Source: Rhodothermales bacterium (GTDB lineage: Bacteria > Bacteroidota > Rhodothermia > Rhodothermales > UBA10348). Taken from it: 15,971 nt of DNA. The position numbers and the translations under genes are program-made. The stretch is from the NCBI GenBank assembly GCA_024711125.1, contig JANJTM010000024.1, positions 1 through 15,971 of the forward strand, read 5' to 3'. Positions within the stretch are counted from its first letter, which is position 1. Each line of letters begins with the position of its first letter. The notes below the pieces were generated by a model. The model worked only from the letters and a program-made list of their open reading frames with translations. It did no database searches and was not told where the DNA came from. This document shows, in pieces, positions 1 to 14,455 of the stretch.

Positions 1-146
1 CCGCCGGCTCCCTTGTAGTCCGATCGCTCCCCGTCGTAGGAGGCCGTCTGCAGGTGCAGCCCGACCTGGAGTCGTTCCGGATCGAACTGGGCAGCGGCCG
101 GCAGGACGGCGGAAAGGAGCAGGGCCGGGAGCAGGAATCGACGCAT
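1..146 (-). CDS. 5' end of a secreted or outer-membrane protein gene; the ATG is at 146 and the gene continues past the window start
   Basis: The reverse complement of 1-146 begins ATG and translates to MRRFLLPALLLSAVLPAAAQFDPERLQVGLHLQTASYDGERSDYKGAG. This is a basic n-region, a hydrophobic core and an AxA-like cleavage site (AAAQ|F), then an alternating hydrophobic/polar pattern. It is too short to appear in the ORF track. It lies directly downstream of the cytochrome terminator on the same strand. Confidence 0.45.
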   Translation of the reverse strand, partial: MRRFLLPALLLSAVLPAAAQFDPERLQVGLHLQTASYDGERSDYKGAG

Positions 147-171
147 GGCGGTGCGGAGTGAATTGACCCAA

Positions 172-216
172 TATCGAAAAAATAAGGCGGCCCGACTCGC
201 TGGAGTCGGGCCGCCC
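172..216 (-). terminator. Rho-independent terminator for the cytochrome gene
   Basis: A perfect 13-bp stem GGCGGCCCGACTC (186-198), loop gctgg, and stem GAGTCGGGCCGCC (204-216). On the minus strand it is followed by TTATTTTTTCG (reverse complement of 172-184). It sits 44 bp downstream of the cytochrome stop at 260. Confidence 0.6.
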
Positions 217-259
217 TCTCGACACGCCGGATGTCATCGCCCGTGATCGGGCGAATCCG

Positions 260-2932
260 TCACTTCATCAGCACGATCGACCGTTCGAATACGCGGTTGC
301 CGGTGCGCATCCGCACGATGTAGAGGCCGCTCGTCAGCGAGCTGCCGTCCATCTGCACGGTGTGGCGGCCGGCCGCCATCGTCTCGTTCACGAGCGTCTG
401 GACCTGGCGGCCGAGGATGTCATACACCGTGATGGTGATGGCGCTCGTGGCCGGCACGTCGTAGGAGATCGTCGTGGTCGGGTTGAACGGGTTCGGATAG
501 TTCTGATTCAGGGCGAACTCGGTCGGCAGGCCGGTGGCCTCGTTGGCCACCGAAACGGCCGCGGCCGCTTCGGCCGACGCGACACCCTGGTTTCCGTTGA
601 AGTCGGTTGCAGTCACCACGTAGTAGTAGTAATTGCCCGCGACGACGGTATTGTCGACGTAGGTCGGATCGGTGACGGTCGCGAGCGGAGTCGTCGGGGA
701 GAAGCCCGAGGTCGTTCCGCGGTAGACCGAGAAGAACTTGAAGTCGGCGTCGACCGGGTCGTCCCAGGTCAGCGTCACGCTGGATGCCGTCGCGTCGACG
801 ACCATGCCCGTCGGGGCCGACGGGGCGAGGTTGTCGGTCGACTGGCCCGCCATCGGGTTCGACATGGCCACGGCGCCCGAGCGCGTGTGGCCGGTCACCA
901 TGTACTCGGTGGCCGTGCCGTCGCCAAGGGTCGGAACGATGGCCGAGTAGTTCTCGAGCCGGGCGGCGGGCTGCTGGCCCACGGCCGTCCAGACTTCACC
1001 GGCGAGGTCGATCGCCATGCCCGCGGCTTCGCCTTCGACCTTGTCGAGCGTCGAGAGGTTGCCCTTGCCGGCGATGTTGTCCTTGCGCCAGATGTAGTAG
1101 GTCAGCACGGGGTCTTCGGCCACGCCGTCGCCGCCGAACTTCGACCACACGACCTGGACCTGCCGGCCCTGGTCGTTCGGAACGTCCAGCACGCTGGCGA
1201 TGGCACCCGGGGCGAGCACGCCGCCCTGGAGGGCACGCAGCGTCAGCTGGATGAGACCGACGGCATACTGGTAGTTGTGCATGCCCTCGGAATTGTCCTC
1301 GTGGACGTAGTTGTAGTTGAACGCGGCCTGCTTCTGGATCCGGGTGTAGCTGTTGGTCACGGTGAAGGTCGGGACACCGATCGGCGGAAGCAGCATGGCG
1401 ACCTGGTCCATCAGGCCGTGCAACTCATCGATGGCTGCCTCGACCGTCTTGTCGCCGTCGTAGTCGTAACGAGCCTGGATGTCGTGGAACGACTCCATCT
1501 CGCCGTGGCAGCGTTCGCACGCCGCGACGTTGTTGACGACCGCTCCGTTCACGAGCGCCTGCACGCCGAACGAGTGGCTGCCCAGCAGATTCTTTCCGGC
1601 GTCGTCCGAGGTCGGCGTCTCGTACATGTGGCAATCGACGCACGAGTTCTCGAGCGCGTCGCGGTGCGTCGAGCTCGGGATGTAGTACCCGAAGTTGTTG
1701 GCGACGTTATTGGCCGCCAGCATGTCGACCTGCGCCGAGCGGTGCGGATCCTGGCGGGTGCCGCCCGTTTCGACCTGGATGGCACCCGTGCGGCGAGCCT
1801 TGTGGCAGTTCATGCAGAGACGGCCCTTGCCGCCCCACTGGACCACGGTCCCGTCGATCAGCGTCACGTCGGCCACCGAGCGCAACTGGTTCGGATTGGC
1901 CGCGTCGTGCGGGTCGTGGCAGGCCGCGCACGTGATGGGCTCGCCGGTCCCGACCTTCTGATCGAGATTGGACAGCGGGTCGATCTTCGCGATGAAGCCC
2001 CACGTGGAGTGGCACTCGGCGCACGATGCACTGGTTCCGCGAGCAAAGGAGGCTCCCGTCGCGTGAATCGAGTTCTTCCACTGCAGCACGTACACGTGGT
2101 GCGTGCCCGAGTCGTGGCACTGCGCGCAGACCGCCGTTTCCACCGAGATGTCGGTGAAGTTGACGTCGCCCTTGTGCTCGGAGCCCGGTCCGTGGCAGGA
2201 TTCGCACTGGATCTGGGTCTTGGCCGCCAGCGCCGGGAAATTGTCGACGATGTTCTGCCAGTCGCCCGGTGCCGGATGCGACGGGAACGCCCAGCCGAGT
2301 TCGCGCTGCACGTCATCGAAGCCGCCGTTGTTCGCCGACGGATCGGTGTTGTACCCGAGCACGTGGCAGCTCAGGCAGCGCTCCATGAAGTGGTCGGTCG
2401 AGATGCCGTCGATCGCCAGCGTGAACGCGTGCGAGTGGTTCGTCGCTTCCCAGTCGACCGTGTTGTCGACGTGGCAGCCCGCGCACTGTCCGTTGCGGAA
2501 GTTCGGGTTCTGACCGGCGATCGAGCCCACGCCGACGTATTCGGCCGCCTTGACCTTGATCGAGGTCGAGGCGGGACCCGCGGCGGTCGTGATCGTCAGG
2601 TTGACGGTGTATTCACCGGCATCCATCGGGCGGAACGTGGTCCATTCCTGGCCCTGCGTGTCCGGCGCGACGGCGCCGCCGGTCGGCCCGGTGATCGACC
2701 ACTCGAACGCGGTAATGGCCTCGCCGCCCGCGTTCGAGCCCCGGAGATAGACGGTTTCGCCCTTGCCGACCACGTCGAGGCCGGACGAGGGCTTGGTGGT
2801 CCAACCGCGGTCGGCGAGATCGCGCGGGCTCATGCCCACGATCTTGATCCGGGCGGCCGGAACCATCTCGATGACGAACTGCGTGGCAGCCACCGCGAAG
2901 AGTGCGGCAACAAGCAGTATCAGTCGTTTCAT
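260..2932 (-). CDS. Nine-heme c-type cytochrome with a signal peptide, an FN3 domain and a T9SS (Por) C-terminal sorting domain
   Basis: ATG verified at 2930-2932 on the minus strand, giving MKRLILLVAALFAVAATQF as the signal peptide. The 966-aa track ORF carries 76 extra upstream residues that are unlikely to be real. Nine CxxCH motifs are present: CAGCH, CLSCH, CESCH, CAQCH, CAECH, CAACH, CMNCH, CVDCH and CERCH. An FN3-like segment follows (SVTLTWDDPVDADFKFFSVYRG...YYYVVTATDFNGNQG). The C-terminus NQNYPNPFNPTTTISYDVPATSAITITVYDILGRQVQTLVNE...SGLYIVRMRTGNRVFERSIVLMK matches the Por secretion tail consensus (TIGR04183-like). Confidence 0.9.
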   Translation of the reverse strand: MKRLILLVAALFAVAATQFVIEMVPAARIKIVGMSPRDLADRGWTTKPSSGLDVVGKGETVYLRGSNAGGEAITAFEWSITGPTGGAVAPDTQGQEWTTFRPMDAGEYTVNLTITTAAGPASTSIKVKAAEYVGVGSIAGQNPNFRNGQCAGCHVDNTVDWEATNHSHAFTLAIDGISTDHFMERCLSCHVLGYNTDPSANNGGFDDVQRELGWAFPSHPAPGDWQNIVDNFPALAAKTQIQCESCHGPGSEHKGDVNFTDISVETAVCAQCHDSGTHHVYVLQWKNSIHATGASFARGTSASCAECHSTWGFIAKIDPLSNLDQKVGTGEPITCAACHDPHDAANPNQLRSVADVTLIDGTVVQWGGKGRLCMNCHKARRTGAIQVETGGTRQDPHRSAQVDMLAANNVANNFGYYIPSSTHRDALENSCVDCHMYETPTSDDAGKNLLGSHSFGVQALVNGAVVNNVAACERCHGEMESFHDIQARYDYDGDKTVEAAIDELHGLMDQVAMLLPPIGVPTFTVTNSYTRIQKQAAFNYNYVHEDNSEGMHNYQYAVGLIQLTLRALQGGVLAPGAIASVLDVPNDQGRQVQVVWSKFGGDGVAEDPVLTYYIWRKDNIAGKGNLSTLDKVEGEAAGMAIDLAGEVWTAVGQQPAARLENYSAIVPTLGDGTATEYMVTGHTRSGAVAMSNPMAGQSTDNLAPSAPTGMVVDATASSVTLTWDDPVDADFKFFSVYRGTTSGFSPTTPLATVTDPTYVDNTVVAGNYYYYVVTATDFNGNQGVASAEAAAAVSVANEATGLPTEFALNQNYPNPFNPTTTISYDVPATSAITITVYDILGRQVQTLVNETMAAGRHTVQMDGSSLTSGLYIVRMRTGNRVFERSIVLMK

Positions 2933-3226
2933 TTGGAAAAGTGCTCCCGGCAGGAAATGCCTTGGCCCTGCCGTCAATGATACTTGGATGGGCCCTCTCA
3001 CCGAGTCTTGCGTCTCGCCGGGGGCGTTCTTGACGTTCCAGCGCCCGCGGACCCGGCATTCCGGGCGATCCGCGCGCGCGGGATCGTCGGGAACAAGGAT
3101 AGGAGCCGACGGGCCCGGAAAGCCCCGGCATTCGTCCGATTTGGGTGTCGGCTGACCCATGCTCCGCGGTGAGAGATAAAACCCGGGGGAGCATGAAGCA
3201 ATGGATTACAACGCGAGTAGCCTTTT

Positions 3227-3244
3227 CCTTACATGCGTGTAAGG
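3227..3244. promoter_or_regulatory. Inverted repeat CCTTACA-tgcg-TGTAAGG in the divergent intergenic region
   Basis: Read directly from the sequence. It lies in the relatively AT-rich 435-bp intergenic region between the cytochrome start (2932, minus) and the hypothetical gene (3368, plus). An inverted repeat of this size is expected by chance in a window this long, so the support is weak. Confidence 0.2.
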
Positions 3245-3304
3245 GCGCGGTAGGTGCCACCTCCCGGATCGATGCGGAAAGTCCTGAAAAACACCAAAAT
3301 GACC

Positions 3305-3324
3305 TGTGACAAATCGTTGTCACA
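3305..3324. promoter_or_regulatory. Candidate operator, a 20-bp perfect palindrome TGTGACAA-atcg-TTGTCACA
   Basis: 8-bp perfect arms with a 4-bp spacer. It sits 44-63 bp upstream of the ATG at 3368 and about 370 bp upstream of the divergent cytochrome gene. It has TGTGA/TCACA half-sites like CRP/FNR-type sites, but with different spacing. Confidence 0.35.
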
Positions 3325-3367
3325 TCCCTTGCGATATGTTGCCGTCGACACTGAAACACGCACCGCC

Positions 3368-3982
3368 ATGACCGCTCCGTCCACCCGACCCACCGTCGCC
3401 GACCTGCTCCGGCTGCGCCGTTCCGCGCCTCGTACCCGCGCGGTCCACCTCGCCACGCCCGGCCCCGAAGGCATGCTGTCCGAATCCCTTTCGCGCGCCG
3501 TCGCGCCGGGCGTGCGCGTGCTGCGTCGCACGGTCGTGGAGACTCCCGCGGGACGCAGCCATGTTCCGCTCGTTCTGGAATCGGCCGGTCGGCGCATCGC
3601 GGTCCTTCCGGACGACGCGGCCGGGCCCGCTTCGGCAGAGGACGCGGCCATGATCCTGGTCTTCGGCGTGTTCGACGTCGTCTACCGGGTGCGGCGCCGG
3701 GCCCTGCTCGGCGACGTACCCGGCGTGGCAGCCGAGATTGCGGGGCAGGAGCCGACGCTGTTCGACGACGAATCGCGCCGCGCAATGCGCCTGTGCGCGT
3801 TGCCGCGCAAGGCCGGGGCAACGGCCTCGGATCGTCCACCGGTCCGTCCCGCGGCGGGTTCGTCGATGGTGGACGTGCGCGTGATGCGGCTGAAGTGCCC
3901 GACCGAGTGGGCCGACGCCTTCGAAATGGCGATGCGGTCGGTCGAAGCGACGCGGGCCCCCCTCTTTGCGCGCAGCGCCTGA
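3368..3982 (+). CDS. Hypothetical protein of about 204 aa with no recognisable domain
   Basis: An ORF with strongly GC-biased third codon positions throughout (MTAPSTRPTVADLLRLRR...FEMAMRSVEATRAPLFARSA). The track begins it at 3254, but that extension covers the AT-richer palindrome region, so the ATG at 3368 is preferred. It converges on the flotillin stop with a 9-bp gap. The antisense 549-aa ORF 2613..4262 is Arg/Pro-rich junk. Confidence 0.5.
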   Translation: MTAPSTRPTVADLLRLRRSAPRTRAVHLATPGPEGMLSESLSRAVAPGVRVLRRTVVETPAGRSHVPLVLESAGRRIAVLPDDAAGPASAEDAAMILVFGVFDVVYRVRRRALLGDVPGVAAEIAGQEPTLFDDESRRAMRLCALPRKAGATASDRPPVRPAAGSSMVDVRVMRLKCPTEWADAFEMAMRSVEATRAPLFARSA

Positions 3983-3991
3983 TCGGATCGG

Positions 3992-5227
3992 CTAGTCCCC
4001 GGTCTCCCCGCGTTCCTGCGACGCACGGCTGAGCAGGCCCGCGATGTCGATGCCCGTGGTTGCCTTCAGCGATTCGAGAAGCGCCGGGGTCGAGCCCGCG
4101 ATCTGGTTGAATACGGCGGGAACGCCCTGTCCCTGTCCCGAATCGACCACCGTCAACTTGTCGATCTTGAGGTTGTCGACGGTCTTGATGACCTCCTTCA
4201 GGATGTCGGGGAGCATCTGGAGCAGGAAGAGCCGCTCGGCGTCCGGCCCGGCCTGGCGCCACAGTTCGAGCTTGCGCGTGAGAATTTCGACCTCGGCGAG
4301 ACCGTCCTGGGCGATGCGGGCGGCGTTGCCCTTCGCGGTCTCTTCCTTGGCCTTGCGCTCGGCCTCGGCGACGACGACAACCTCGGCGTGCGTGCGCTTC
4401 TCGGCCAGCGCGATTTCCTGCTTGGCGAGTTCCTGCTCGGCGGTCGCCTTGGCGACCTGGCCGGAAACCTCCACACGGGCTTCTTCGGCTTTCGCCTTCG
4501 CGTCGAGCTGGGCTTTCAGGATGCGCACGTCGGTCTGCGCCTGCGCGATCGCGCGGTCGGCATCGGCCTCGGCCAGCTTGGCCTGCTGGCGCATCTGCGC
4601 TTCGACGACTTCGGCCGCGGCGATGATGTTCGCGGTACTCTGGCGTCCGATGGCGTTCAGGTACCCCCGGTCGTCCTCGACGCTCTGGATCTTGAGCGTG
4701 TCGAGCTGAAGCCCGAGAGCGCCCAGGTCGTTGTCGGCCTCCTCGACCAGCACCTTCGCGAACTTGAGCCGGTCCTCGTTCACCTCCTCGGGCGTCAGTG
4801 TCGCGCAGACGCCGCGGAGGTTTCCCTCGAGCGTCTCCTTGGCAATGGTCTGGATCTCCTCGAGCGGCTTTGCCAGCAGGCGTTCGACCGCGTTGTTGAG
4901 CTCGGTCTCGTTCGACGAGATCTTGACGTTGGCGATCGCCTTGACCGTGAGAGGGATTCCGCCCTTCGAATAGGCGTTCGACACGGTGAGATCTATCGGA
5001 ATCGTCGTGAGCATCAGCCGGTCGACCTTTTCGATGATCGGAATGCGGAATCCGCGCCCACCCCGGATCACCCGGTACCCCACCTGGCTTCCGTCGGAAA
5101 GCCGCCGCTTGCGGCCGCTGAAAATGAGGACCTCGTTCGGCTGGCAGATCTTCAGATTGGCGCGCACGATGCCGAGCACGGCCAGAAATCCGAGGATCAG
5201 GATGGCCGGTACGACGAAGAGTTCCAT
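3992..5227 (-). CDS. floT: Flotillin-like SPFH/band-7 protein (FloT/YuaG family)
   Basis: An N-terminal membrane anchor (MELFVVPAILILGFLAVLGIV), an SPFH domain, then a long Ala/Glu/Lys-rich coiled-coil (AEQELAKQEIALAEKRTHAEVVVVAEAERKAKEE). The ATG at 5225-5227 is verified, and GGAGG lies 9 nt upstream. Confidence 0.9.
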   Translation of the reverse strand: MELFVVPAILILGFLAVLGIVRANLKICQPNEVLIFSGRKRRLSDGSQVGYRVIRGGRGFRIPIIEKVDRLMLTTIPIDLTVSNAYSKGGIPLTVKAIANVKISSNETELNNAVERLLAKPLEEIQTIAKETLEGNLRGVCATLTPEEVNEDRLKFAKVLVEEADNDLGALGLQLDTLKIQSVEDDRGYLNAIGRQSTANIIAAAEVVEAQMRQQAKLAEADADRAIAQAQTDVRILKAQLDAKAKAEEARVEVSGQVAKATAEQELAKQEIALAEKRTHAEVVVVAEAERKAKEETAKGNAARIAQDGLAEVEILTRKLELWRQAGPDAERLFLLQMLPDILKEVIKTVDNLKIDKLTVVDSGQGQGVPAVFNQIAGSTPALLESLKATTGIDIAGLLSRASQERGETGD

Positions 5228-5262
5228 GGCGTTGGCGCCTCCGGCGCGCTGGGAGATGGATC

Positions 5263-5856
5263 CTATTCCGGTTTTACCACTTCGGCGACTCGCCCGTCGA
5301 TGCGGATCACGACGACCTCGTCGCCCGGTGCGAACGTCTCGGACGCGTCGTCCGAAAGCGACCTGGCGAGAAGCTGCAGCCGTTGTCCCCTGGCCTCGAG
5401 CAGGATCTTGCCGCGCTCGGCACCTTCGAAGGGAACGAGGACGCGGGCCGTCCGCCCTGCGAGCTCCTGCAGGCCCACGCTGCTCGTCACCTGCTCGTAG
5501 GCGAACCGCTTGATCGCGTAGTTTCCGCCCAGGCCCACGATCAGGCCGGTCAACGTCGCGAGGACCGCGGTGAGCGGTTCGGTCGTGTCGAGCCAGGAGA
5601 GCGCCGAACCGGTCAGGCCGAAAAAGGCCGCGAAGAGGAACAGCGCGCGAAGCGAGAACAGGTCGACGAAATCGGGACCGTCGTGGCCGGCGTCGAGGCC
5701 GTGGTCGAGATGGACGTCGTGGTCGGGCGATTCGCCCGCATCGGCGTCGACCTCGGCGTCGGCGTCAGCGTCAGACGAGCCCCCGCTCCCGCCGAAGATC
5801 GACAGCAGCACGAAGAACCCCCCGACGATCAGGCAGACCAGGTATACCGATTCCAT
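5263..5856 (-). CDS. nfeD: NfeD-family membrane protein (YuaF-like), the partner of flotillin
   Basis: N-terminal transmembrane helices (MESVYLVCLIVGGFFVLLSIFGG ... LFLFAAFFGLTGSALSWL) and a C-terminal beta-rich OB-fold-like segment (RVLVPFEGAERGKILLEARGQRLQLLAR...GDEVVVIRIDGRVAEVV). It lies immediately upstream of flotillin on the same strand, which is the classic nfeD-flotillin pair. The track start at 5898 is a TTG codon; the ATG at 5854-5856 is preferred. Confidence 0.85.
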   Translation of the reverse strand: MESVYLVCLIVGGFFVLLSIFGGSGGSSDADADAEVDADAGESPDHDVHLDHGLDAGHDGPDFVDLFSLRALFLFAAFFGLTGSALSWLDTTEPLTAVLATLTGLIVGLGGNYAIKRFAYEQVTSSVGLQELAGRTARVLVPFEGAERGKILLEARGQRLQLLARSLSDDASETFAPGDEVVVIRIDGRVAEVVKPE

Positions 5857-5949
5857 GCGAGCAGCCCGCCGGATGAACGGCGCATGATAGATCCCCAAGC
5901 GCTCGGAATCAAAGCGAGATAGCCGTATCGGGGGGTCGGGGACTTCCCG

Positions 5950-6309
5950 TCAGGATCCGGTCCCGACGGGGGTCACGGCGGCGCGGTCCTCCTCGCCGGT
6001 GCGGATGCGGTACACTTTTTCCACCGGAAGTACGAAGATCTTGCCGTCGCCGACGTCCCCGGTGCGCGCGGCACGAAGAATGGCCTGGACCGTGGGCTCG
6101 ACGAACGGGTCCGAAACGCCGATGTCGAGTTGCACCTTGTCGGCCAGCTCCCTGCGCACCGTGGTTCCACGGTAGGTCTCCTCGGCTTCGCGTTCCCCGC
6201 CGTGACCGCGGACGCGGGAGACGGTGAATCCGCGCACGTCGGCCTCGAACAGCGCGAAGAGCACGTCCGTCAGCTTCTCGGGCCTGATGATGGCCTTGAC
6301 GAGTTTCAT
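5950..6309 (-). CDS. glnK: Nitrogen regulatory protein PII (GlnK)
   Basis: MKLVKAIIRPEKLTDVLFALFEADVRGFTVSRVRGHGGEREAEETYRGTTV...GDGKIFVLPVEKVYRIRTGEEDRAAV follows the PII pattern, including a T-loop Tyr. ATG at 6307-6309 verified. It starts 20 bp after the amtB stop. The longer track ORFs 5909..6832 and 5950..6711 are Arg-rich 5' read-through. Confidence 0.9.
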   Translation of the reverse strand: MKLVKAIIRPEKLTDVLFALFEADVRGFTVSRVRGHGGEREAEETYRGTTVRRELADKVQLDIGVSDPFVEPTVQAILRAARTGDVGDGKIFVLPVEKVYRIRTGEEDRAAVTPVGTGS

Positions 6310-6329
6310 GGGTCGTAGCGGAATGGGTT

Positions 6330-7616
6330 TCAGGCGGCCGCCCGGACTGCGGGAGCCGGATTCGAGGATTCGAGAACGAGCACCGCACCCTCCCCGTCGG
6401 AGTAGGCCTCTTCGCCGTGCAGCGCCACGTCCAGGCCCTGCGCCTCCTGGCGGGGGCTGACGCGAATCGAGGTGATGCGCCGAAGGGCGAAGACGATGAG
6501 CGCCGAGACGGTCGCGCTGTACAGGAAGACGGCGGCGATCGACAGCGCCTGGACGGCGAGTTGCGACGGATTGCCGTGGAGCAGTCCGTCGTACGAACCG
6601 TTCCACGCCGGGTCGGCGAAGACGCCGACGAGCAGGGCGCCCACGATCCCGCCGACGCCGTGGGCCGCGAACACGTCCAGCGAGTCGTCGAGGCGGGTGC
6701 GGGCCCGCCATACCAGCGCGAAGTGGCTGGGGGCCGCGGCGATCGCGCCGATGGCAAGTGCGGATACGGGAGAAACGAGGCCGGCCGCCGGCGTAATCGC
6801 CACGAGCCCGACCACGGCGGCGGTGGCGGCACCTACCGCCGTGACCCTCCCCGTCCTCACGGTATCGAGGAGCATCCAGACCAGGATCGTGGCCGACGGG
6901 GCGAGCAGCGTATTGACGAAGGCGAGGACGGCCAGGCGGTCAGCCGCGAGCGCCGACCCTCCGTTGAAGCCGAACCATCCGAACCAGAGCAGCCCGGCGC
7001 CGAGCACCACGAACGGCACGTGGTGCGGAAGAAGTGCGAGGCGGCCGTAGTCCGTTCGGGGCCCGAGAGTGCGCGCCAGCACCCACGCGGCGGCGGCGGC
7101 GTTCACGTGGACCACGGCGCCACCGGCGAAATCGAGTGCGCCGAGCGAGGCGATCCAGCCTCCGCCCCAGACCCAGTGGCAGACCGGGGCATAGACGAAG
7201 AGGCCCCAGAGGGCGATGAATGCGACGTACGGACCGAATCGGATGCGTTCGACCACGGCGCCGGAGATCAGGGCGGCCGTGATCACGAAAAAGGTGCCTT
7301 GGTATGCCATGAAGAGGAGGTGGGGCACCGTTCCGCGCGCTTCGAGATCTACCCCGTCGAGAAAAGCCATCGAGAAGTCGCCGATCCATGCGGAGCCCGT
7401 GCCGAAGGCGAGGGAGTACCCGACGGTCACCCAGGTGACCAGCGAAACCCCCAGGGCCACGAAACTCATCATCATGGTGTTGAGCATGTTCTTCGCACGG
7501 ACCAGGCCGCCGTAGAACAGGGCGAGCGCCGGGGTCATGAGCAGGACCAGGCCGGCCGACACGAGCACCCAGACGATATCGGCTCCGGAAAGCGCGGATG
7601 GAACGGTTGTAGGCAT
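6330..7616 (-). CDS. amtB: Ammonium transporter (Amt family)
   Basis: A 428-aa polytopic membrane protein with Amt hallmarks (FYGGLVRAKN, MAFLDGVD, GAVVERIRFG, DFAGGAVVHVNAAAAAW, AHGVGGIVGALLVGVFA). ATG verified at 7614-7616. It is co-directional with glnK and directly upstream of it. Confidence 0.95.
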   Translation of the reverse strand: MPTTVPSALSGADIVWVLVSAGLVLLMTPALALFYGGLVRAKNMLNTMMMSFVALGVSLVTWVTVGYSLAFGTGSAWIGDFSMAFLDGVDLEARGTVPHLLFMAYQGTFFVITAALISGAVVERIRFGPYVAFIALWGLFVYAPVCHWVWGGGWIASLGALDFAGGAVVHVNAAAAAWVLARTLGPRTDYGRLALLPHHVPFVVLGAGLLWFGWFGFNGGSALAADRLAVLAFVNTLLAPSATILVWMLLDTVRTGRVTAVGAATAAVVGLVAITPAAGLVSPVSALAIGAIAAAPSHFALVWRARTRLDDSLDVFAAHGVGGIVGALLVGVFADPAWNGSYDGLLHGNPSQLAVQALSIAAVFLYSATVSALIVFALRRITSIRVSPRQEAQGLDVALHGEEAYSDGEGAVLVLESSNPAPAVRAAA

Positions 7617-7692
7617 TGGATGACCAAGGAAATAAGGACAAGGGCCGCTCGTAGCTTACGAAGTAATGATGATGTGCGCTATGGACGTGCTT

Positions 7693-7709
7693 TCGGAAAG
7701 CGCTTCCGA
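7693..7709. promoter_or_regulatory. Palindrome TCGGAA-agcgc-TTCCGA in the amtB/ddrA-like divergent intergenic region
   Basis: 6-bp arms. The centre, AAGCGCTT, is itself an 8-bp perfect palindrome. It lies about 80 bp upstream of the amtB ATG on the minus strand. Confidence 0.25.
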
Positions 7710-7731
7710 CTCGGGAAAATTTAATTCGGAG

Positions 7732-7751
7732 TATGACAGAATGATGTCATA
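7732..7751. promoter_or_regulatory. Candidate operator, a 20-bp palindrome TATGACA-gaatga-TGTCATA
   Basis: 7-bp perfect arms with a 6-bp spacer in an AT-richer 177-bp divergent intergenic region. It lies 43 bp upstream of the ATG at 7794 and about 115 bp upstream of the amtB ATG. Confidence 0.35.
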
Positions 7752-7793
7752 TACCCGCGGCTATCCTGTGCCCGCAACACACCGAGCCCCCCG

Positions 7794-8303
7794 ATGACTC
7801 CGTCATTTCTCGCCGCACTCACCCGGAGGTTCTCCTCCGATGACCTCGCGTGGAAGCCCGTCGCCGTCAACCGCGAGCAGGGCCGGGCGCGGGTCGTGCC
7901 GTACGTCACGAACCGCGCGATCATGGATCGACTGGACCAGGTATGCGGTCCGGAAAACTGGCGCAACGAGTATTGCCCGGGCCCGAACGGCGGCCTGCTC
8001 TGCGGCATCTCGATACGCCTCGTACGCGAGGATCATACCGCGGAGTGGGTTACCAAGTGGGACGGCGCCGAGAATACCCAGCTCGAGCCGGTCAAGGGCG
8101 GTCTCTCGGCCTCCATGCGCCGGGCCGCCGTGCAGTGGGGCATCGGTCGGTACCTCTATCGCATCCCGCCGATCGAGGCCCGGGTAGACGAACAGGGCCG
8201 ACTCGTGGGACGTCCGGAGCTTCCTCCGGAGTTCCGGCCCGAGCCGGTCGAACCGCGCCGTCTCCGCCCCGCGGCCGCCAGGGCCCGCGAGATGGCCGCA
8301 TAA
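7794..8303 (+). CDS. ddrA: Rad52/Rad22-family single-strand annealing protein (DdrA-like)
   Basis: LAWKPVAVNREQGRARVVPYVTNRAIMDRLDQVCGPENWRNEY ... GGLSASMRRAAVQWGIGRYLYRIPP carries the two hallmark blocks of bacterial and phage Rad52-family proteins. The first block matches the pattern W/SWKP...V.PYV..R.I.DRLD.V.GP..W. The second matches A.KRAAVQ(F/W)GIGRYLY, as in Deinococcus DdrA and phage Sak. ATG at 7794 verified. Confidence 0.75.
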   Translation: MTPSFLAALTRRFSSDDLAWKPVAVNREQGRARVVPYVTNRAIMDRLDQVCGPENWRNEYCPGPNGGLLCGISIRLVREDHTAEWVTKWDGAENTQLEPVKGGLSASMRRAAVQWGIGRYLYRIPPIEARVDEQGRLVGRPELPPEFRPEPVEPRRLRPAAARAREMAA

Positions 8304-8360
8304 GGTGGTGGGCGGTCCACCGGTGCGTAGCTTCAGGTCCTGAACGAGCGTACGATCGTG

Positions 8361-9491
8361 ATGGCCGAGGGGCATCTCAACCGGACCGAGGTCCTTCGAT
8401 ACGGAAGACATCTTCTGCTGCCCGAGATCGGACTCGAGGGCCAGGAGCGACTCCGAAACGCGTCGGTCCTCGTGGTCGGCGCCGGCGGACTCGGCTCTCC
8501 GGCGGCCCTCTACTGCGCTGCCGCAGGATTCGGCCGGCTGGGCATCGCCGACGCCGATACCGTGGACCCGTCCAATCTCCAGCGCCAGATCCTGTATTCG
8601 GAGCCCGACATAGGGGCCTCCAAGGTGGAGCGAGCCGTACTCAGGCTGCGGGAATTCAACCGCGGAGTGCGCGTGGAACCGATCCAGGTCCGGGTCGATG
8701 CTTCCAACGCCCTGGCCATCGTCGCGGAGTACGACCTGGTCATCGACGCGACCGACAACTTCGAAACGAGGTACCTGCTCGCCGACGTCTCCGCCCTCAC
8801 GGGACGCCCGGTGGTACACGGCGCCGTGCACGGATTCGAAGGGCAGGTATCGGTATTCGGCCTGCCCGGAAGGCCGTGCTACCGTTGCCTCCATCCCGTG
8901 CCGCCTCCTCCGGGCCTGGCCCCCGGGTGCGGGGAGGCCGGCGTGCTCGGGGCGGCGACCGGCGTGATCGGCTCGTTGCAGGCCGTGGAAGCCGTGAAGC
9001 TCGCCGCGGGAGCGGGCGAGCCGCTGGCCGGGCGCCTGCTCCACATCGACCTGCGGCTCGGCCGCTTCGAGACCATCGAGTTCGACGCGGACCCGTCCTG
9101 CCCGGCCTGCGGGAGGTCCGCAACGCCGGAAATCCGGCACGACTACACCGAGTTCTGCGGAGCCGCCGACCCGGTCGTGCGCACCGTGACCGCGATCGAA
9201 CTCGCACGACGCCTCGTCGACCCGGAATCCGTGCAGTTGATCGACGTGCGCCGACCGCACGAAGCGCACATCGTTTCGATCGGTGGCATCGTCATCCCCG
9301 AATTCGAGCTTCCGGCGCGGATGTCTGAGTTGGACCCGGCTCGCCCGGTCGTGTGCTACTGCCGATCCGGGATACGCTCGGCGCGAGCGGCGGCGCTCCT
9401 GGAGGCCGCGGGCTTTTCAGATGTCGCCCACCTGGCAGGGGGGCTGTTCTCGTGGGCAGCCACGGTCGACCCCGATATTCCGCTCTACTGA
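8361..9491 (+). CDS. moeZ: MoeZ/MoeB-type adenylyltransferase-sulfurtransferase (ThiF/MoeB E1-like domain plus C-terminal rhodanese)
   Basis: YGRHLLLPEIGLEGQERLRNASVLVVGAGGLGSPAALYCAAAGFGRLGIADAD..SNLQRQ is the nucleotide-binding E1 fold. CYRC...CPAC is the zinc motif. The C-terminal rhodanese domain carries the active-site loop CYCRSGIRS. The track start at 8358 is GTG and is immediately followed by the ATG at 8361. It begins 57 bp after the ddrA-like stop on the same strand. Confidence 0.9.
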   Translation: MAEGHLNRTEVLRYGRHLLLPEIGLEGQERLRNASVLVVGAGGLGSPAALYCAAAGFGRLGIADADTVDPSNLQRQILYSEPDIGASKVERAVLRLREFNRGVRVEPIQVRVDASNALAIVAEYDLVIDATDNFETRYLLADVSALTGRPVVHGAVHGFEGQVSVFGLPGRPCYRCLHPVPPPPGLAPGCGEAGVLGAATGVIGSLQAVEAVKLAAGAGEPLAGRLLHIDLRLGRFETIEFDADPSCPACGRSATPEIRHDYTEFCGAADPVVRTVTAIELARRLVDPESVQLIDVRRPHEAHIVSIGGIVIPEFELPARMSELDPARPVVCYCRSGIRSARAAALLEAAGFSDVAHLAGGLFSWAATVDPDIPLY

Positions 9492-9506
9492 CCCGCGACC
9501 GCGATC

Positions 9507-10055
9507 TCAGTCCCCGTCGGGTCCGTCTGCGCGCAACGCACGACCCAGCCCGATCGGAAGCGTGGCGCCTTCGAGTACGGCACCGGTGAGGTCGGCACCG
9601 GTCAGATCGGCACCCGCGAGATTCGCCGAAACGAGGATTGCGCGCCGGAGCACGGCCCCCTCCAGCCGGCAGCGACGAAGGTCGGCGTCGTGAAGGATCG
9701 CTTCCGTGAGTCGGGCGCCCGAGAGGTCGGCTTCGCCGAGGTCCGCCTGGTTGAGCACGGCGAAACTGAGGTCGGCTCCGCGGAGGCATGCGGCCCGGAG
9801 GACCGCGCCGGTAGCGTCTGCACCGGTCAGGTTCGCCCCGGACAGGTCGGAGCCCGAGAAGTCGCAACCCTCCAATTCGGCCACGGTGAGGTAGGCCCCG
9901 GCCAGATCCGACCGCGACAGATCGCATCCCCGCAGATCTGCCCCCGTGAGGTCGGCCCCGGTGAGATCCGGCCGAACGTCCGGAAATGCCCTCCGCCACG
10001 CGTTGAACGATTCCGCGCCGCCCAGCAGGCGATCCACGAGATCACGGTCGGCCAT
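9507..10055 (-). CDS. Pentapeptide-repeat protein
   Basis: About 25 tandem A(D/N)LxG pentapeptides (ADLTGADLTGADLRGCDLSRSDLAGAYL...ANLAGADLTGADLTGAVLEGATL). The preferred start is the ATG at 10053-10055 (MADRDLVDRLL), which has GAGGA 5 nt upstream. In-frame ATGs at 10091 and 10100 are alternatives. It converges on moeZ with a 15-bp gap. Confidence 0.8.
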   Translation of the reverse strand: MADRDLVDRLLGGAESFNAWRRAFPDVRPDLTGADLTGADLRGCDLSRSDLAGAYLTVAELEGCDFSGSDLSGANLTGADATGAVLRAACLRGADLSFAVLNQADLGEADLSGARLTEAILHDADLRRCRLEGAVLRRAILVSANLAGADLTGADLTGAVLEGATLPIGLGRALRADGPDGD

Positions 10056-10118
10056 CGAATCCTCGAATTCCCTCGGGCGGGCAAGTGACATCAGCGGCAT
10101 GATACGCGTAGCTTCGGC

Positions 10119-10346
10119 GTGCAAACGAATCCGTCGGTCCCCCTCGTGAACATCTGGCTCGACCGCCTGCCGGTCCTGTTCGCCCGGCTCGCGAAAATCG
10201 CCGTGGCCTGTTTCGGCATCGCGGCCGTGGGAATGGCGCTCGGATGGTCCTGGCACGAAGCCGCCCGGTGGGTGCTCTGGATCGGAGGAATAGGGGCCGC
10301 AGCCGCGACCGCTGGATGGGTAATCGGCACCCTGAAAACCGATTAA
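10119..10346 (+). CDS. Possible small membrane protein of 75 aa with two predicted transmembrane helices
   Basis: GTG start with no clear RBS. Third-position GC is about 78%. There are two hydrophobic helices (LPVLFARLAKIAVACFGIAAVGMALGW and WVLWIGGIGAAAATAGWVIGTL). No homology is recognised, so it could be spurious. Confidence 0.35.
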   Translation: MQTNPSVPLVNIWLDRLPVLFARLAKIAVACFGIAAVGMALGWSWHEAARWVLWIGGIGAAAATAGWVIGTLKTD

Positions 10347-10518
10347 AGCGATTTCGGCCGTCGCGAAAAAGAAGAAGCGGTTCGGGACCCGAAGGGCCTC
10401 GTTTCGGAGGGCGGCTCGGTATTCGCGCGTGTCCGAGGTGGGCCACGAAACTCCGCAGGCCGGAGACCGCGCCTCCGTTCGCTCTTCTAAGGGAACGAAA
10501 GGGTGCGGACCTGGGATT

Positions 10519-10665
10519 TCGGCCCAAAGTCGATGTATTCGACCCCAAAAGCGGGTGAATATGTCGACTAATGGCCCTTTTTCGACGTTTTGCCCCCGAA
10601 AAGCGGGCCAATACATCGACTTTCGGCCTCGATTCGATGTATTGGTCCCCGATATGCGGAAGGGA
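10519..10665. repeat. Three degenerate tandem units of about 50 bp. Each has a GTCGATGTATT-like arm around a CCCC(G)AAAAGCGGG loop
   Basis: The motif agtcgatgtatt occurs at 10529-10540. Its exact reverse complement aatacatcgact occurs at 10612-10623, and tcgatgtatt recurs directly at 10634-10643. Related arms are gaatatgtcgac (10557-10568) and ttcgacgttttg (10581-10592). The intervening loops are ccccaaaagcggg (10546), cccccgaaaagcgggcc (10594) and ccccgatatgcgg (10648), each able to form CCCG/CGGG mini-hairpins. The region is non-coding: only overlapping Arg-rich ORFs are predicted. Confidence 0.5.
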
Positions 10666-10806
10666 CAAGCCGCCCGCAGCCCTTCGCGGGCCGGCCGGGC
10701 CCGGTCGACGAGCCGTTCGACCCGCCCGGCACCGACGAGAAGGGGCTGTCCAGATCACTCCGGACTGCCCCGTAAGTATGCTCTAACCGGCGTTTCTGCC
10801 TGGAAG

Positions 10807-10904
10807 CACCCCGGCGAAGCCGGTCCCGGTCAACAAAACCAGCCGGTCCCGGTCAAACACCACCGCCCTTCGAACCCACCCCGGCGAAGCCGGTCCCGGT
10901 CAAC
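10807..10904. repeat. Perfect 28-bp direct repeat CACCCCGGCGAAGCCGGTCCCGGTCAAC (10807-10834 and 10877-10904) with a partial third copy at 10841-10858, ending 9 bp from the 3' end of tRNA-Ala
   Basis: Read directly from the sequence. The repeat period is 70 bp. Each copy contains the hairpin CCGGC-gaa-GCCGG followed by the tandem hexamer ccggtc ccggtc. The partial copy is AGCCGGTCCCGGTCAAAC. Confidence 0.7.
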
Positions 10905-10913
10905 CAAATCGAG

Positions 10914-10986
<73 letters not shown>

Positions 10987-11136
10987 GGCGGCCATGTCGC
11001 ACAGTCGGTTACGGCATCACTGAAGTCGTCCGGTCGGAGGCTGTGCAGACAATGTACATGATCCTTGGTCGAGACGCATCAGTTGAACACTGGTTGAAGG
11101 GGCGGAATCCCGATCCTAGTGGGAGCCACGCAGTGC

Positions 11137-12195
11137 CTACTGCAGGCTCGTGAGATCGACATGCGCACGTCGCCTCTCAACCAGACGCGCAGCGATCGAC
11201 ACGGCGATCTCGGCCGGCGTCGTCGCCAGGATGGGCACCCCAACAGGACCGTCTATCCGCTCGATATCGGCCTGAGAGAATCCAGATGACCGCAGCCGAC
11301 TGCGCCTGGCTTCCTGAGTCTTCCGCCCACCGAGTGCCCCGATGTATCGTGCCGGACTCCGAAGCAGCACATGAAGGGCCGGATCGTCGACCTGCGGATC
11401 GTGCGTCAGAAGGACGGCATAGCAGGATTCGGACAGCGGGATCCTGGAGAGAGCGTGTTCTGAGGCGTCTGTGAGAACTGCGGACGGAGCCTCGATGTAA
11501 AGGCTCCCGTCCACGAGCACGCGCCGCGGATCGATAAGCAGCGTCTCGAATTCGAGAGCGTGAGCCAGAGGTATCAGATGGCACGCGATGTCCGAGCCCC
11601 CAACGATGATGAGTCGGTCCCGGGCAGGAAGAGGATGAAGGAGCCATTCGTCGTCCCCCAGGGTGGCCACCACCGGAGTACGGCAAGCGATGGATCGGCG
11701 TGCCGCATCAACTAGACCGGGATCCACTGCCAGAGCAAGAGGCTCCAGCGGCGTCCCTTCGACGTCGAGAAGCACCGGTGGAAATGATCCGGTCATGGGG
11801 CTGGCAAGCACAACCGGTCGGTCCGCTCGCAGCGCCTCGACGAGTGCACGGCCAACCGCCTGAGACTCCGGGTTGGCAGCGAACATGGGAAAGCGCTCGA
11901 TGTGGATCCTTACCGTCCCGCCGCATGAGAGCCCAGTCGACCACGCGGTCTCGGCGCTCACGCCGTAGCTGACTATCTGCGGAAGGCCAGTGGCGAGGGT
12001 ACCCAGCGCCTCGTCCACGACAGCGTGCTCCACGCAACCCCCGGAGACCGATCCGGCCCACTCCTTGGGCGATGCAACCACCATGGCCGCGCCCGGGCGA
12101 CGCGGTGCTGAACCCCAGGTCGATACGACTCGGGCCCATGCCACGGGACGTCCGTCCTCGATGGCGCGTTCAATGAAGGGGAGGACGTCTCGCAT
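11137..12195 (-). CDS. xdhC: XdhC/CoxI-family molybdoenzyme maturation factor
   Basis: The N-terminal XdhC_CoxI block is VAWARVVSTWGSAPRRPGAAMVVASPKEWAGSVSGGCVEHAVVDEA. The C-terminal Rossmann block is DRLIIVGGSDIACHLIPLAHALEFETLLIDPR. ATG verified at 12193-12195. Confidence 0.85.
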   Translation of the reverse strand: MRDVLPFIERAIEDGRPVAWARVVSTWGSAPRRPGAAMVVASPKEWAGSVSGGCVEHAVVDEALGTLATGLPQIVSYGVSAETAWSTGLSCGGTVRIHIERFPMFAANPESQAVGRALVEALRADRPVVLASPMTGSFPPVLLDVEGTPLEPLALAVDPGLVDAARRSIACRTPVVATLGDDEWLLHPLPARDRLIIVGGSDIACHLIPLAHALEFETLLIDPRRVLVDGSLYIEAPSAVLTDASEHALSRIPLSESCYAVLLTHDPQVDDPALHVLLRSPARYIGALGGRKTQEARRSRLRSSGFSQADIERIDGPVGVPILATTPAEIAVSIAARLVERRRAHVDLTSLQ

Positions 12196-12278
12196 CGGCC
12201 TATCCCGCTAGCCGCTGAACGGTAGTCTCACCACGGTCCCCACGCTGTCCAGCCGCCGGCTCGAAAGCACCTGCCGGC

Positions 12279-13898
12279 CTACTGCCGTGGCACCATGAAC
12301 GGAAGCGCCTTCTCGATCACGTCCAGTCTTGCCTTACGCGGATCGGGTCCGGCAATGGGTGTGCCGTCGCGTTGGATTTCAAGAACGTTGTCCTGTCCGC
12401 GCTCATAGGTTGGCCATTCCGGCAACCCGAGTCCGTTTGGGTCGCCGGTCTTGGCGAAGTTCGCCCAGTATGAATGCATCACTCGTGCCACCTCGTGATC
12501 CTCAGGCGTCGCGGCGTCCGAACCCCACCGGGTGTCGAGCGTGTTGAACACGTATGGGATTTCGGATCCGTGCGGGGCCCCATATGGCATACGGTCTCGG
12601 ACCGATGCAGGGACATAGGCAAAGAGATACATGTACGACGGAATGCCTGCGGCCGCCCAGGTCCGTGCGGTGAATCGGGCCGGCTCCGCCCACACCTTGT
12701 CCGTGTTCACCATCGTGAGCATTTCAGCGAGCTCAGTGGCGCCGTCGGCATCGTAGATGGCGGATGCCTCATCTGCGACGCCGCCGAACAACGCCAGCAG
12801 CTCCTCCTTGGAGCCCGCGTTGACGAATCCGCCACCGACCTCCGCACTGTTGGAGCCAATGATAATCGGCTTATGCGGTGCCCGGCCGCCGTTGTATGCG
12901 CTTTCGGCCGTCTCGACGACCAACGTGCCGTCGAGAATCGGACCCGAGTAGATCGGCGCCCCACCTTGGCCGTCATACTCCTCGCCGCCGTCGACGATAT
13001 CCCCAACGGGCAGCCCGCGAAGTCTAGCCAAGGCGGCTGCATCCGTACCATCGATCCCGTGCCTGCGGGCGAAGTTCTGCCCAACCGTTTGCGCCGAAAC
13101 CGGGTAGTATGGGTCGGCATGCTCCCTGTCGATCGGGCGCCCCGTGAGCACCCCGTCGCGGCCTCCTCCAGACTCGATGATCGCCTTCTGAAACAGGTCG
13201 TTCGCAGCCGGAATCGTCAGAAGCGAATGCACCGAGACGCCACCGGCGGAGAAGCCGAAGATGGTGACATTACCTGGGTCGCCACCGAACCTGGCGATGT
13301 TCGTCTGAAGCCACTGGAGCGCGGCGATCTGGTCCATGTAGGCGTAGCTGCCCTTCTGTTCGTCCGGATGCTCACGACTGAGTGCAGGAAACGCGAAGTG
13401 GCCCAGACGGCCGAGGCGGTAGTTGAGCGTCACCAGGATGACGCCTTGTCTGGCGAACTCGATGCCCGCGGTGGTGGGCCCGGCACCGCTGCCGCCGACG
13501 AATGCCCCGCCATGGATCCAGACCATCACTGGCAGACCGGCGTTGGTTGCCGTGCCCTCGGGCACCCAGAGGTTGAGGAACAGGCAATCCTCGGATGAGT
13601 CCTCGGCAATCGTGCCGGACCCTCTCGGCCAGCCTGGTTGGGCACAGTTGGCGGCAAACTCCCTGGCATCGAGCTCGCCCGCCCACGATGAGGCGGGCTG
13701 TGGCGGACGCCATCGAAAGGGTCCCACCGGTGGTGCAGCGTACGGAATCCCTTTGAAGCTGGTGACGCCTTCCTGCGTCGCACCGCGCACGAGACCCGAA
13801 GCCGTGTGCACCGTCTGTCCGCTGACCGTGCCAAACGTCACCATCATGCTCATCGCCACGAGGACGACGCTGCGAACTCCCGGATACGTTCCCTTCAT
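12279..13898 (-). CDS. Type-B carboxylesterase/lipase (PnbA-like), secreted
   Basis: Signal peptide [28 protein letters not shown]. Family hallmarks are [41 protein letters not shown] and the nucleophile elbow [18 protein letters not shown] at 13896-13898 verified. Confidence 0.9.
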
Positions 13899-13946
13899 GG
13901 CAGTTCCACCAACGATTTCGAGTACTTGAGATTCAGATAGAGCGTC

Positions 13947-14429
13947 CTAGTGTTCGATGACATGGGTGTCCCGCACCGAGCTGAAGGTCAGCGCCAGCAG
14001 CTTCCACACAGCCTGGTCGGCGACATAAACCTCCGTGACCGTGAACTCGGTGGTCACCTCCTCGCCCCGGACCATGGCCGTCAGGGTAATGCGGTTCCAC
14101 AGCACCCCCGTGTCGTTCACTACCTCCGCAGCCACGTCGTGGACGTCGGCCTGTCGGTAGTGGATGCTGCCGCTACGGATGATCTCCAGCTCGCTGGCCT
14201 TTCCCCAAGTGCCGCTCATGTGGACGAACTTGGCCTTGTCGTGAAACAGTACGGCGAGCGAATCGACGTTCTTCTCGGCCATCCACATCCATTTCCGAGC
14301 CGACAGGTCACGGATCTGCTGCTCAGCGCCCGCTGCAGACAGGGTCGGCGGGGCCGCGTTCTCGTCCTGCCCCGTGGTACACGCAGCACAAAGGGCCAGA
14401 ACACACAGGACGGTGCTGGTTGCTTTCAT
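13947..14429 (-). CDS. NTF2-like (SnoaL/DUF4440-type) lipoprotein
   Basis: MKATSTVLCVLALCAACTTG is a lipoprotein signal with a lipobox Cys. It is followed by an NTF2-like fold of about 130 aa (WMWMAEKNVDSLAVLFHDKAKFVHMSGTWGK...TEFTVTEVYVADQAVWKLLALTFS). The track start at 14459 is a TTG codon; the ATG at 14427-14429 is preferred. Confidence 0.65.
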   Translation of the reverse strand: MKATSTVLCVLALCAACTTGQDENAAPPTLSAAGAEQQIRDLSARKWMWMAEKNVDSLAVLFHDKAKFVHMSGTWGKASELEIIRSGSIHYRQADVHDVAAEVVNDTGVLWNRITLTAMVRGEEVTTEFTVTEVYVADQAVWKLLALTFSSVRDTHVIEH

Positions 14430-14455
14430 GACGAATGGGGGCCGTGGCCCACGTA

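Follow-up and report, generated by a model that had tools for sequence, protein, structure and literature searches.

A 20-bp palindrome in a 15,971-nucleotide stretch of a Rhodothermales bacterium (GenBank assembly GCA_024711125.1, contig JANJTM010000024.1, positions 1 to 15,971; this whole stretch is called the window in the following) is a real and conserved promoter element, and it belongs to the rad52-like gene that lies behind it. A second copy precedes a gene for a nuclease-fold protein, which we call geneX. The best interpretation makes the box a new, lineage-specific member of the promoter class that is used by WYL activators, with a new pair of targets; this class is already known from Actinobacteria, Caulobacter and Acinetobacter. 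With a probability of about 0.6, the box is bound by a homodimeric class-A WYL regulator of the winged helix-turn-helix (wHTH)-WYL-WCX type, which would sense single-stranded DNA (ssDNA) and act as a damage switch independent of LexA. The presence of such a regulator in Rhodothermales, activation instead of repression and a signal consisting of ssDNA or DNA damage are points that we infer by analogy. The features on which the argument depends are the following (PWM, position weight matrix).

3305-3324, plus strand: second operator TGTGACA-AATCGT-TGTCACA, 43 nt before the ATG at 3368 (PWM score 27.9)
3335-3340, plus strand: putative -10 hexamer TATGTT, 13 nt after TGTC, as at the rad52-like promoter
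3368-3982, plus strand: geneX, coding for a 204-aa protein with a PD-(D/E)XK fold, behind the second box
7732-7751, plus strand: operator TATGACA-GAATGA-TGTCATA, a 20-bp palindrome with perfect 7-bp arms and the core TGACA-N6-TGTCA(C)
7762-7767, plus strand: putative -10 hexamer TATCCT (TAnnnT), 13 nt downstream of TGTC in the proximal half-site
7794-8303, plus strand: rad52-like gene, coding for a 169-aa protein of the Rad52/Rad22 family (Erf-like)

The box and its promoter

The palindrome TATGACA-N6-TGTCATA, which an earlier note on this DNA had pointed out, is indeed present with perfect 7-bp arms, and 42 nt separate its end from the ATG at 7794. A relaxed palindrome search of the window, allowing up to three mismatches, gave two matches against 0.10 expected, a number that was reached in only 1 of 200 shuffles. 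To some extent a palindrome might be expected by chance at this position, since arms of 7 bp are short and the intergenic region has a GC content of 0.515, which is below that of its flanks. However, the excess over expectation and the retention of the box in 62 of 81 orthologous loci, at 50-70% protein identity, make a chance origin practically negligible.

The latter number comes from a scan with one genome per species, which resulted in 80 loci of 12 kb each (81 with the window). Nearly all of them belong to Rhodothermales, and the encoded relatives share 45-69% identity. In 42 of the 80 loci the orthologous gene is preceded, at a distance of 50-150 nt, by the exact core GACA-N6-TGTC, which is almost absent from the rest of these loci. 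With a PWM built from these sites, a box was recognized before the orthologous gene in 62 of the 81 loci, window included, and always in plus orientation. The suggestion of the earlier note that the palindrome is a genuine regulatory site of the rad52-like gene is thereby borne out. The invariant part of the PWM is TGACA...TGTCA(C), while the outer bases vary (TATGACA, TGTGACA, GGTGACA). The box is also asymmetric: a G occupies spacer position 5 in 84% of the sites, and the gene-proximal arm is extended to TGTCACCC, with a C-rich extension on this side. Apart from a few weaker matches, the box is confined to the upstream regions of the rad52-like and geneX families within the 745 kb of Rhodothermales loci.

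The box is absent before the Rad52-like relatives from Longimicrobium, Gemmatimonadales and one metagenome-assembled genome each of Desulfobacterales and Anaerolineales (loci L061, L069, L072, L076-L078 and L080). It is also lacking upstream of three second Rad52-like copies (L022, L062 and L075) in assemblies that already hold another one (L015, L037 and L065), and it is missing upstream of the Rad52-like gene in L021, L044, L049, L059 and L060.

The distance between the box and a putative -10 hexamer is largely fixed. Of 44 aligned sites, 36 have [T/G]AnnnT at exactly 12 nt from TGTC and five have TAnnnT at 13 nt, both window sites being among the latter. Transcription of the rad52-like gene would start near position 7774, so that the palindrome would be centred at about -32, in the usual location of a -35 element. 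A hexamer resembling a -35 element was not found 16-18 nt before the -10 of the rad52-like promoters, where the best candidates share one to three of six positions with TTGACA, whereas the amtB promoters of the same genomes mostly carry hexamers with four to six matching positions, N17/18 before TAnnnT. A scan of the intergenic region of the window with the sigma-70 consensus gave no match either, which is consistent with a promoter without -35 element. We conclude from the fixed spacing to the -10 and the poor match to a -35 that the promoter consists of a -10 without -35, in which the site of a dimer replaces the latter. A search of positions 7500-7900 against Rfam revealed nothing credible.

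The earlier note had also considered that the palindrome might be an operator of the neighboring amtB gene. Two further features are of importance here.

6330-7616, minus strand: amtB, divergent to and upstream of the rad52-like gene, with a P-II gene beyond it
7696-7707: GAAAGCGCTTCC, a near-palindrome (GGAAGC-GCTTCC) before amtB

Nitrogen control of a divergent amtB-glnK operon by the palindrome would fit the position of amtB as divergent neighbor, which it occupies in the window and directly in 19 of the 81 loci, and the box is present in all of these 19 loci. However, the other 43 of the 62 box-bearing loci do not possess a divergent amtB, the box is oriented toward the -10 on the rad52 side at a fixed distance, and the second box precedes geneX, far from any nitrogen gene. 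Moreover, amtB has a different box of its own. The inverted repeat TCGGAA-N5-TTCCGA, correctly reported before for this region (7693-7709), corresponds to GAAAGCGCTTCC, which recurs with at most two mismatches in 17 of the 19 loci with divergent amtB, mostly 115-118 nt before the start of the amtB open reading frame (ORF) and just upstream of amtB's own canonical TTGACA-N17/18-TAnnnT promoter. A role of the palindrome in nitrogen control is therefore extremely unlikely, and the claim has to be dropped. GAAAGCGCTTCC in turn is a candidate nitrogen-control site. It does not fit the spacings usual for NtcA, TnrA, AmtR, NtrC and NrpR sites. Two loci (L058 and L074) carry two copies of it. A sigma-54 promoter for amtB was rejected, since no match to TGGCAC-N5-TTGCW within three mismatches exists in 7617-7793; the sigma-54-like string formerly proposed for the amtB strand lies beyond this limit, and the 46 matches in the entire window compare with 47 expected.

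The probable regulator and the alternatives

The identity of the probable binder is suggested by metagenomes. A scan with the pattern TRTGACA-N4-G-N-TGTCAC-N10-KANNNT, which combines the motif with the -10, yielded at least 120 loci. A gene for a wHTH-WYL-WCX protein (HTH_11/WYL/WCX) adjoins the motif in 21 of the 120 listed metagenome loci and in one of ten viral matches; the zone within 100 nt of the motifs makes up 3.6% of the 851 kb scanned. Among the matches listed, a gap of 4-20 nt mostly separates the end of the WYL gene from the motif, which the target gene follows, or else the WYL gene starts just after the motif, and in L116 and L091 the motif precedes the WYL regulator gene itself. 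In an unbiased Pfam census of 77 upstream neighbors, WYL (13), WCX (11), HTH_11 (7) and HTH_PafC (6) took the top ranks. Among solved structures, the regulators adjacent to the motif match PafC, PafBC and DriD.

The genes behind the motif point in the same direction. Among the matches listed there are eleven GyrI-like and four DinB-like genes, two recA genes behind cinA and two genes for RNase_H_2 exonucleases, and furthermore single genes for a Sak annealing protein, for a YqaJ exonuclease and for a protein with helix-hairpin-helix domains. These recurrent downstream genes fit a damage theme. The ten motif matches in viral contigs do not share a recurrent theme.

Some of the metagenome loci are of interest in their own right. 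A uniform cassette is present in L094, L110, L140, L141, L143, L149, L150, L153, L185, L189 and L206, which are termite-gut and other metagenome contigs. It consists of a WYL-WCX gene, a gap of 4-20 nt, the sequence ATATGACAyACnGnTGTCAC-N8-TGnTATAAT and a GyrI-like or DinB-like gene coding for 153-165 aa, and the -10 of its promoter is of the extended type, with a -35 lacking. Two metagenome contigs that are unrelated to each other (L127 and L176, GC content 0.50 and 0.53) have motif and -10 between cinA and recA, and this arrangement suggests that WYL-type control of recA may exist outside Actinobacteria and Acinetobacter. In L210 (1293-2438), two motifs flank a single WYL-WCX gene. One of them drives the downstream gene for an RNase_H_2-family exonuclease, and the other, in divergent orientation, immediately precedes the regulator gene and points toward a gene coding for 416 aa. 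The regulator of a further locus with high GC content, L162, is a PafB-like protein of Chloroflexota. A search for a Rhodothermales WYL regulator by homology to it was given up, since the relatives of the L162 protein are Chloroflexota.

A binder of the wHTH-WYL-WCX type is thus proposed because of the promoter grammar, the co-localization of the motif with WYL genes and the damage-themed targets. Promoters of class-A WYL regulators have a site with GTC/GAC core that is palindromic in the case of homodimers, which corresponds to the invariant TGACA-N6-TGTCA of the PWM, and this site lies over the -35 position at a fixed distance to a normal -10 in the absence of a -35, as it does here. In the mechanism that we propose, ssDNA arising from DNA damage would occupy the WYL domains of the homodimeric regulator, as it does in the characterized members of the family (PafBC, DriD, DdaA and SiwR), and its binding would free the wHTH domains to bind the box. 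The promoter would be a hybrid, with the dimer site TGACA-N6-TGTCA(C) in the place of the -35 and an ordinary TAnnnT -10 at a fixed distance. The regulator might recruit the housekeeping RNA polymerase, or adapt it to the use of such a -10-only promoter, and as an outcome the annealing protein and its nuclease-fold partner would be induced.

Several observations weigh against this proposal. The WYL hidden Markov model (HMM) found no regulator gene in the window or in the 745 kb of Rhodothermales loci. Clustering of the ORFs from the 81 loci did not reveal a transcription factor beside rad52 or geneX, the neighbors being amtB, P-II, Band7, NfeD, an outer-membrane-like protein, a phosphoesterase and similar genes, and a tblastn search of plasmids with a WYL regulator gave no Rhodothermales record. 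The box has only two target families in the Rhodothermales sample, and no site before recA, uvr or ssb was seen there. At both window sites the distance from TGTC to the -10 is 13 nt and not 12 nt, and the arms of the box are N6 apart, compared with N5 between GACA and TGTC in DriD and DdaA sites. Furthermore, the pattern used for the metagenome scan contained the -10, so that promoters were selected, though not WYL neighbors. Finally, not every WYL regulator is a damage activator: BrxR and CapW act as repressors. They function in anti-phage defence and form a separate clade (PMC12392091). Since some WYL regulators are of this defence type, activation in the present case is an analogy.

The last point leads to the view that the box is an operator at which a repressor occludes the promoter, with induction by release. 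The repressor might be a non-canonical LexA, another helix-turn-helix protein or a WYL protein that represses like BrxR or CapW. Many damage regulons work by release of repression, and the box, which spans roughly -42 to -22, would block the polymerase. However, repressed promoters normally keep a usable -35, whereas the rad52-like promoters reach only one to three of six positions where amtB promoters reach four to six, and the spacing equals that of the activator-dependent promoters of PafBC and DriD. As far as LexA is concerned, damage responses of Bacteroidota have been described in terms of non-canonical LexA proteins with the motifs GGA-N5-TCC and CTAA-N5-TTAG, in a study (PMC8565304) in which "Rhodotherm" is not mentioned. 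Neither motif is matched: the intergenic region contains TGACA-N6-TGTCA and an element GGAA-N5-TTCC, equivalent to GGA-N7-TCC, that goes together with amtB, and these LexA boxes were rejected. Altogether, we regard a repressor as rather unlikely.

The earlier note had thought of a DdrO-like repressor of the XRE family, which acts on a site similar to an RDRM (radiation/desiccation response motif) and which an IrrE-like protease (COG2856) cleaves once damage has occurred. The ddrA gene of Deinococcus is in fact a Rad52-family gene under control of RDRM and DdrO, and pairs resembling IrrE and DdrO have been reported outside Deinococcus (PMC8533742). RDRMs, however, are 17-bp sites of the type TTATGT-N5-ACATAA, for instance TTATGTCATTGACATAA, TTTTATGTCATTGACATAAT and GTTATGTCAAAAACATAATC (PMC8533742), whereas the box comprises 20 bp with the core TGACA-N6-TGTCA, and its TGTCA and TGACA arms stand in the opposite order. 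The supposed resemblance rests on the outer TA/TG bases, and exactly these vary between orthologous sites, so that the TA..TA ends are not conserved. In addition, the 25 families listed as neighbors of the motif in the 77 metagenome loci include neither HTH_3 (XRE) nor Peptidase_M78 (COG2856) nor S24, and WYL and WCX dominate among them. Control by DdrO and IrrE is very unlikely for these reasons. What survives is the more general idea that, outside Deinococcus too, a Rad52-family gene may have a damage-type operator, and a link of the rad52-like gene to DNA damage is plausible.

A more far-reaching version of the WYL-activator proposal is possible, albeit tentative. Rhodothermales would then possess a LexA-independent switch triggered by ssDNA, in which a homodimeric WYL activator turns on a minimal repair module of two genes, for a DdrA-like Rad52 annealase and a degenerate PD-(D/E)XK partner, and the grammar of a GTC half-site, 12 nt and TAnnnT without -35 would be shared by class-A WYL activators across Actinobacteria, Alphaproteobacteria, Chloroflexota, Bacteroidota and the low-GC contigs from termite guts. 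If this is true, WYL regulons could be read from sequence alone, and the TGTC-N12-TAnnnT geometry, which occurs in unrelated taxa beside WYL genes, would be a simple rule for finding them. If the WYL-activator proposal as such holds, Rhodothermales would join the lineages whose damage-inducible recombination genes are under the control of a WYL activator. Moreover, a bacterial chromosomal Rad52-family protein outside Deinococcus would obtain a regulatory context and a link to an uncharacterized nuclease-fold partner.

The target genes and other features of the window

The assignment of the product of 7794-8303 to the Rad52 family had already been made from the letters of the sequence, with the blocks LAWKP, VVPYV, RLDQVCGPENW and RRAAVQWGIGRYLY, all of which are contained in the translation. 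The HMM search confirmed it: the protein matches Pfam PF04098 (Rad52_Rad22) with an E-value of 1.2e-13 and 51.7 bits, well above the cut-off of 20.3. It also matches PHROG 1097 ("Erf-like ssDNA annealing protein") with an E-value of 1.7e-49, and PF04098 is present in 120 of 120 homologs among the matches listed. The identical 169-aa product results from independent gene calls on four other assemblies, and source records name the relatives only "Rad52". The closest named homologs come from Rhodocaloribacter, Rhodothermales and Rubricoccaceae, and the nearest relatives of the window as a whole, which is high-GC DNA, are Rhodothermales (Bacteroidota). NCBIfam contains no family for this protein, and searches of the PDB with single sequences and with a profile gave no solved relative. 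Judging from these matches, the gene product is a Rad52-family single-strand annealing protein, for which annealing, ssDNA binding and ring formation are predicted.

Many of the orthologs (P0018, P0022, P0047, P0061, P0094, P0112 and others) possess, besides a long linker of low complexity, a peptide conserved at the C-terminus, D-[DV]-[DE]-x-x-x-[YF]-[FM]-M-P, which may be a partner-binding tail. The 169-aa protein of the window lacks this peptide.

The second target, geneX, has no match in Pfam, NCBIfam or PHROG, and sequence searches of the PDB (single sequences and profile) gave nothing. Its product shows the alpha-beta-beta-beta-alpha-beta core fold of restriction endonuclease-like proteins. 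The putative catalytic positions of the D...(D/E)xK type, VDF...E and RRIAxE, which are found in many members, are replaced by HVPLVLE and RRIAVLPDD in the window copy. The family is small and lineage-restricted: at 50% identity it forms 24 clusters in a set of 1.84 billion representatives.

A box of its own precedes geneX also in L001, L003, L005, L010 and L057 and in the metagenome contigs L093 and L180. In L025, L063 and L064 the order is box, geneX and rad52-like gene, with no separate box before rad52, which suggests an operon. In the window and in several relatives, a Band7/NfeD pair sits between the two genes. Based on the position of its boxes, geneX is predicted to be co-regulated with the rad52-like gene, and the annealing protein and its nuclease-like partner appear as a small regulon that is conserved across Rhodothermales. 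A further characteristic of the geneX products is a conserved C-terminal tail, [R/K/L][A/S][A/S]-COOH (ARSA, ALSA, RKAS or RQAS), which is shared by the window and the ten loci named in this paragraph and is reminiscent of protease-recognition tails.

The remaining features of the window do not concern the box. A ThiF/rhodanese gene follows downstream of the rad52-like gene, and the following features were recognized elsewhere.

260-3160, minus strand: gene for a 966-aa multihaem cytochrome with Cytochrome_C7 and MtrC/MtrF-like domain, paired CXXCH motifs and a C-terminal sorting domain of the type IX secretion system (T9SS)
5950-6711, minus strand: P-II ORF, listed with 253 aa and overlapping amtB; the P-II domain covers residues 135-240 only
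10914-10986, minus strand: tRNA gene (71 bits), the sole Rfam match in the entire window

The cytochrome might serve in electron transfer, either secreted or at the surface; its gene adjoins one for a PKD-repeat protein in related assemblies. Since the P-II domain is confined to residues 135-240 and other assemblies call a P-II product of 119 aa, the true start of glnK is internal to the listed ORF. The tRNA gene lies within a listed ORF (10429-11061), which is therefore probably not a gene.

Comparison with known systems

At the level of the protein family, the rad52-like gene resembles ddrA of Deinococcus, since in both cases a Rad52-family annealing or end-protection protein has a dedicated damage-type operator. 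However, the operators differ in length, arm order and sequence, and the regulator is predicted to be an activator here, while DdrO is a cleavable XRE repressor. The phage Erf/Sak/Rad52-like annealases with their exonucleases are another point of reference. The match of the window protein to PHROG 1097 is in line with them, and the pairing of the rad52-like gene with a PD-(D/E)XK-fold protein recalls the exonuclease and annealase modules of phages. In contrast to these modules, the rad52-like gene lies in a varied chromosomal context that does not resemble a prophage and that is kept across an order; furthermore, the putative catalytic residues of geneX are not conserved in the window copy.

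Closer parallels exist among the WYL regulators. SiwR of Mycobacterium smegmatis is a homodimeric WYL activator whose imperfect 19-bp palindrome lies shortly before the -10, and it has DinB-like targets (PMC10693628), as do four of the metagenome loci described above. SiwR differs in that the regulator adjoins its target, whereas no regulator gene is found within 6 kb of the targets in Rhodothermales. DdaA of Acinetobacter (Moraxellaceae) is a homodimeric WYL-WCX activator that uses the palindrome CGWCA-N5-TGWCG before recA, ssb, uvr and cas genes (PMC12392091). Here, a T replaces the C before GACA and the spacer is N6 instead of N5, and the regulon of DdaA is large.

DriD of Caulobacter crescentus, with the targets didA, bapE and driD, binds ATACGAC-N7-GTCGTAT, the ideal site being ATACGACAGTAACTGTCGTAT, and in promoters without -35 this site extends over the position of the -35, its distance to the -10 being constant (PMC13004042). 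The box shares with it the pseudo-palindrome of about 20 bp, the GAC(A)/(T)GTC core, the position over the -35 and the type of promoter. DriD itself is a homodimer with ssDNA as its signal (PMC13004042), a likeness to the proposed binder of the box. Differences concern the half-site (ATACGAC versus TRTGACA), the spacer (GACA-N5-TGTC versus N6), the targets (a cell-division inhibitor and others versus an annealing protein and a nuclease-like protein) and the host (Alphaproteobacteria versus Rhodothermales).

The promoters of PafBC, finally, have the form tGTCgg(N10)tA(N3)T without a -35, and a "-26 element" is read through the GTC triplet (PMC8635444). The PafBC site is not palindromic, and the heterodimer that occupies it places one HTH on the DNA and the other one on sigma (PMC6789036, PMC8635444), whereas the full inverted repeat at the rad52-like box implies a homodimer with both HTHs on the DNA. 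TGTC is followed by AC here and by GG in PafBC promoters, and the spacing in the window is 13 nt. The PafBC promoters of the RecA-NDp type in Actinobacteria share with the box the arrangement tGTC-N12-tAnnnT, the ordinary -10 without -35 and targets in recombination and repair (PMC8635444), and PafC and PafBC are the PDB entries matched by regulators whose genes adjoin this motif in metagenomes.

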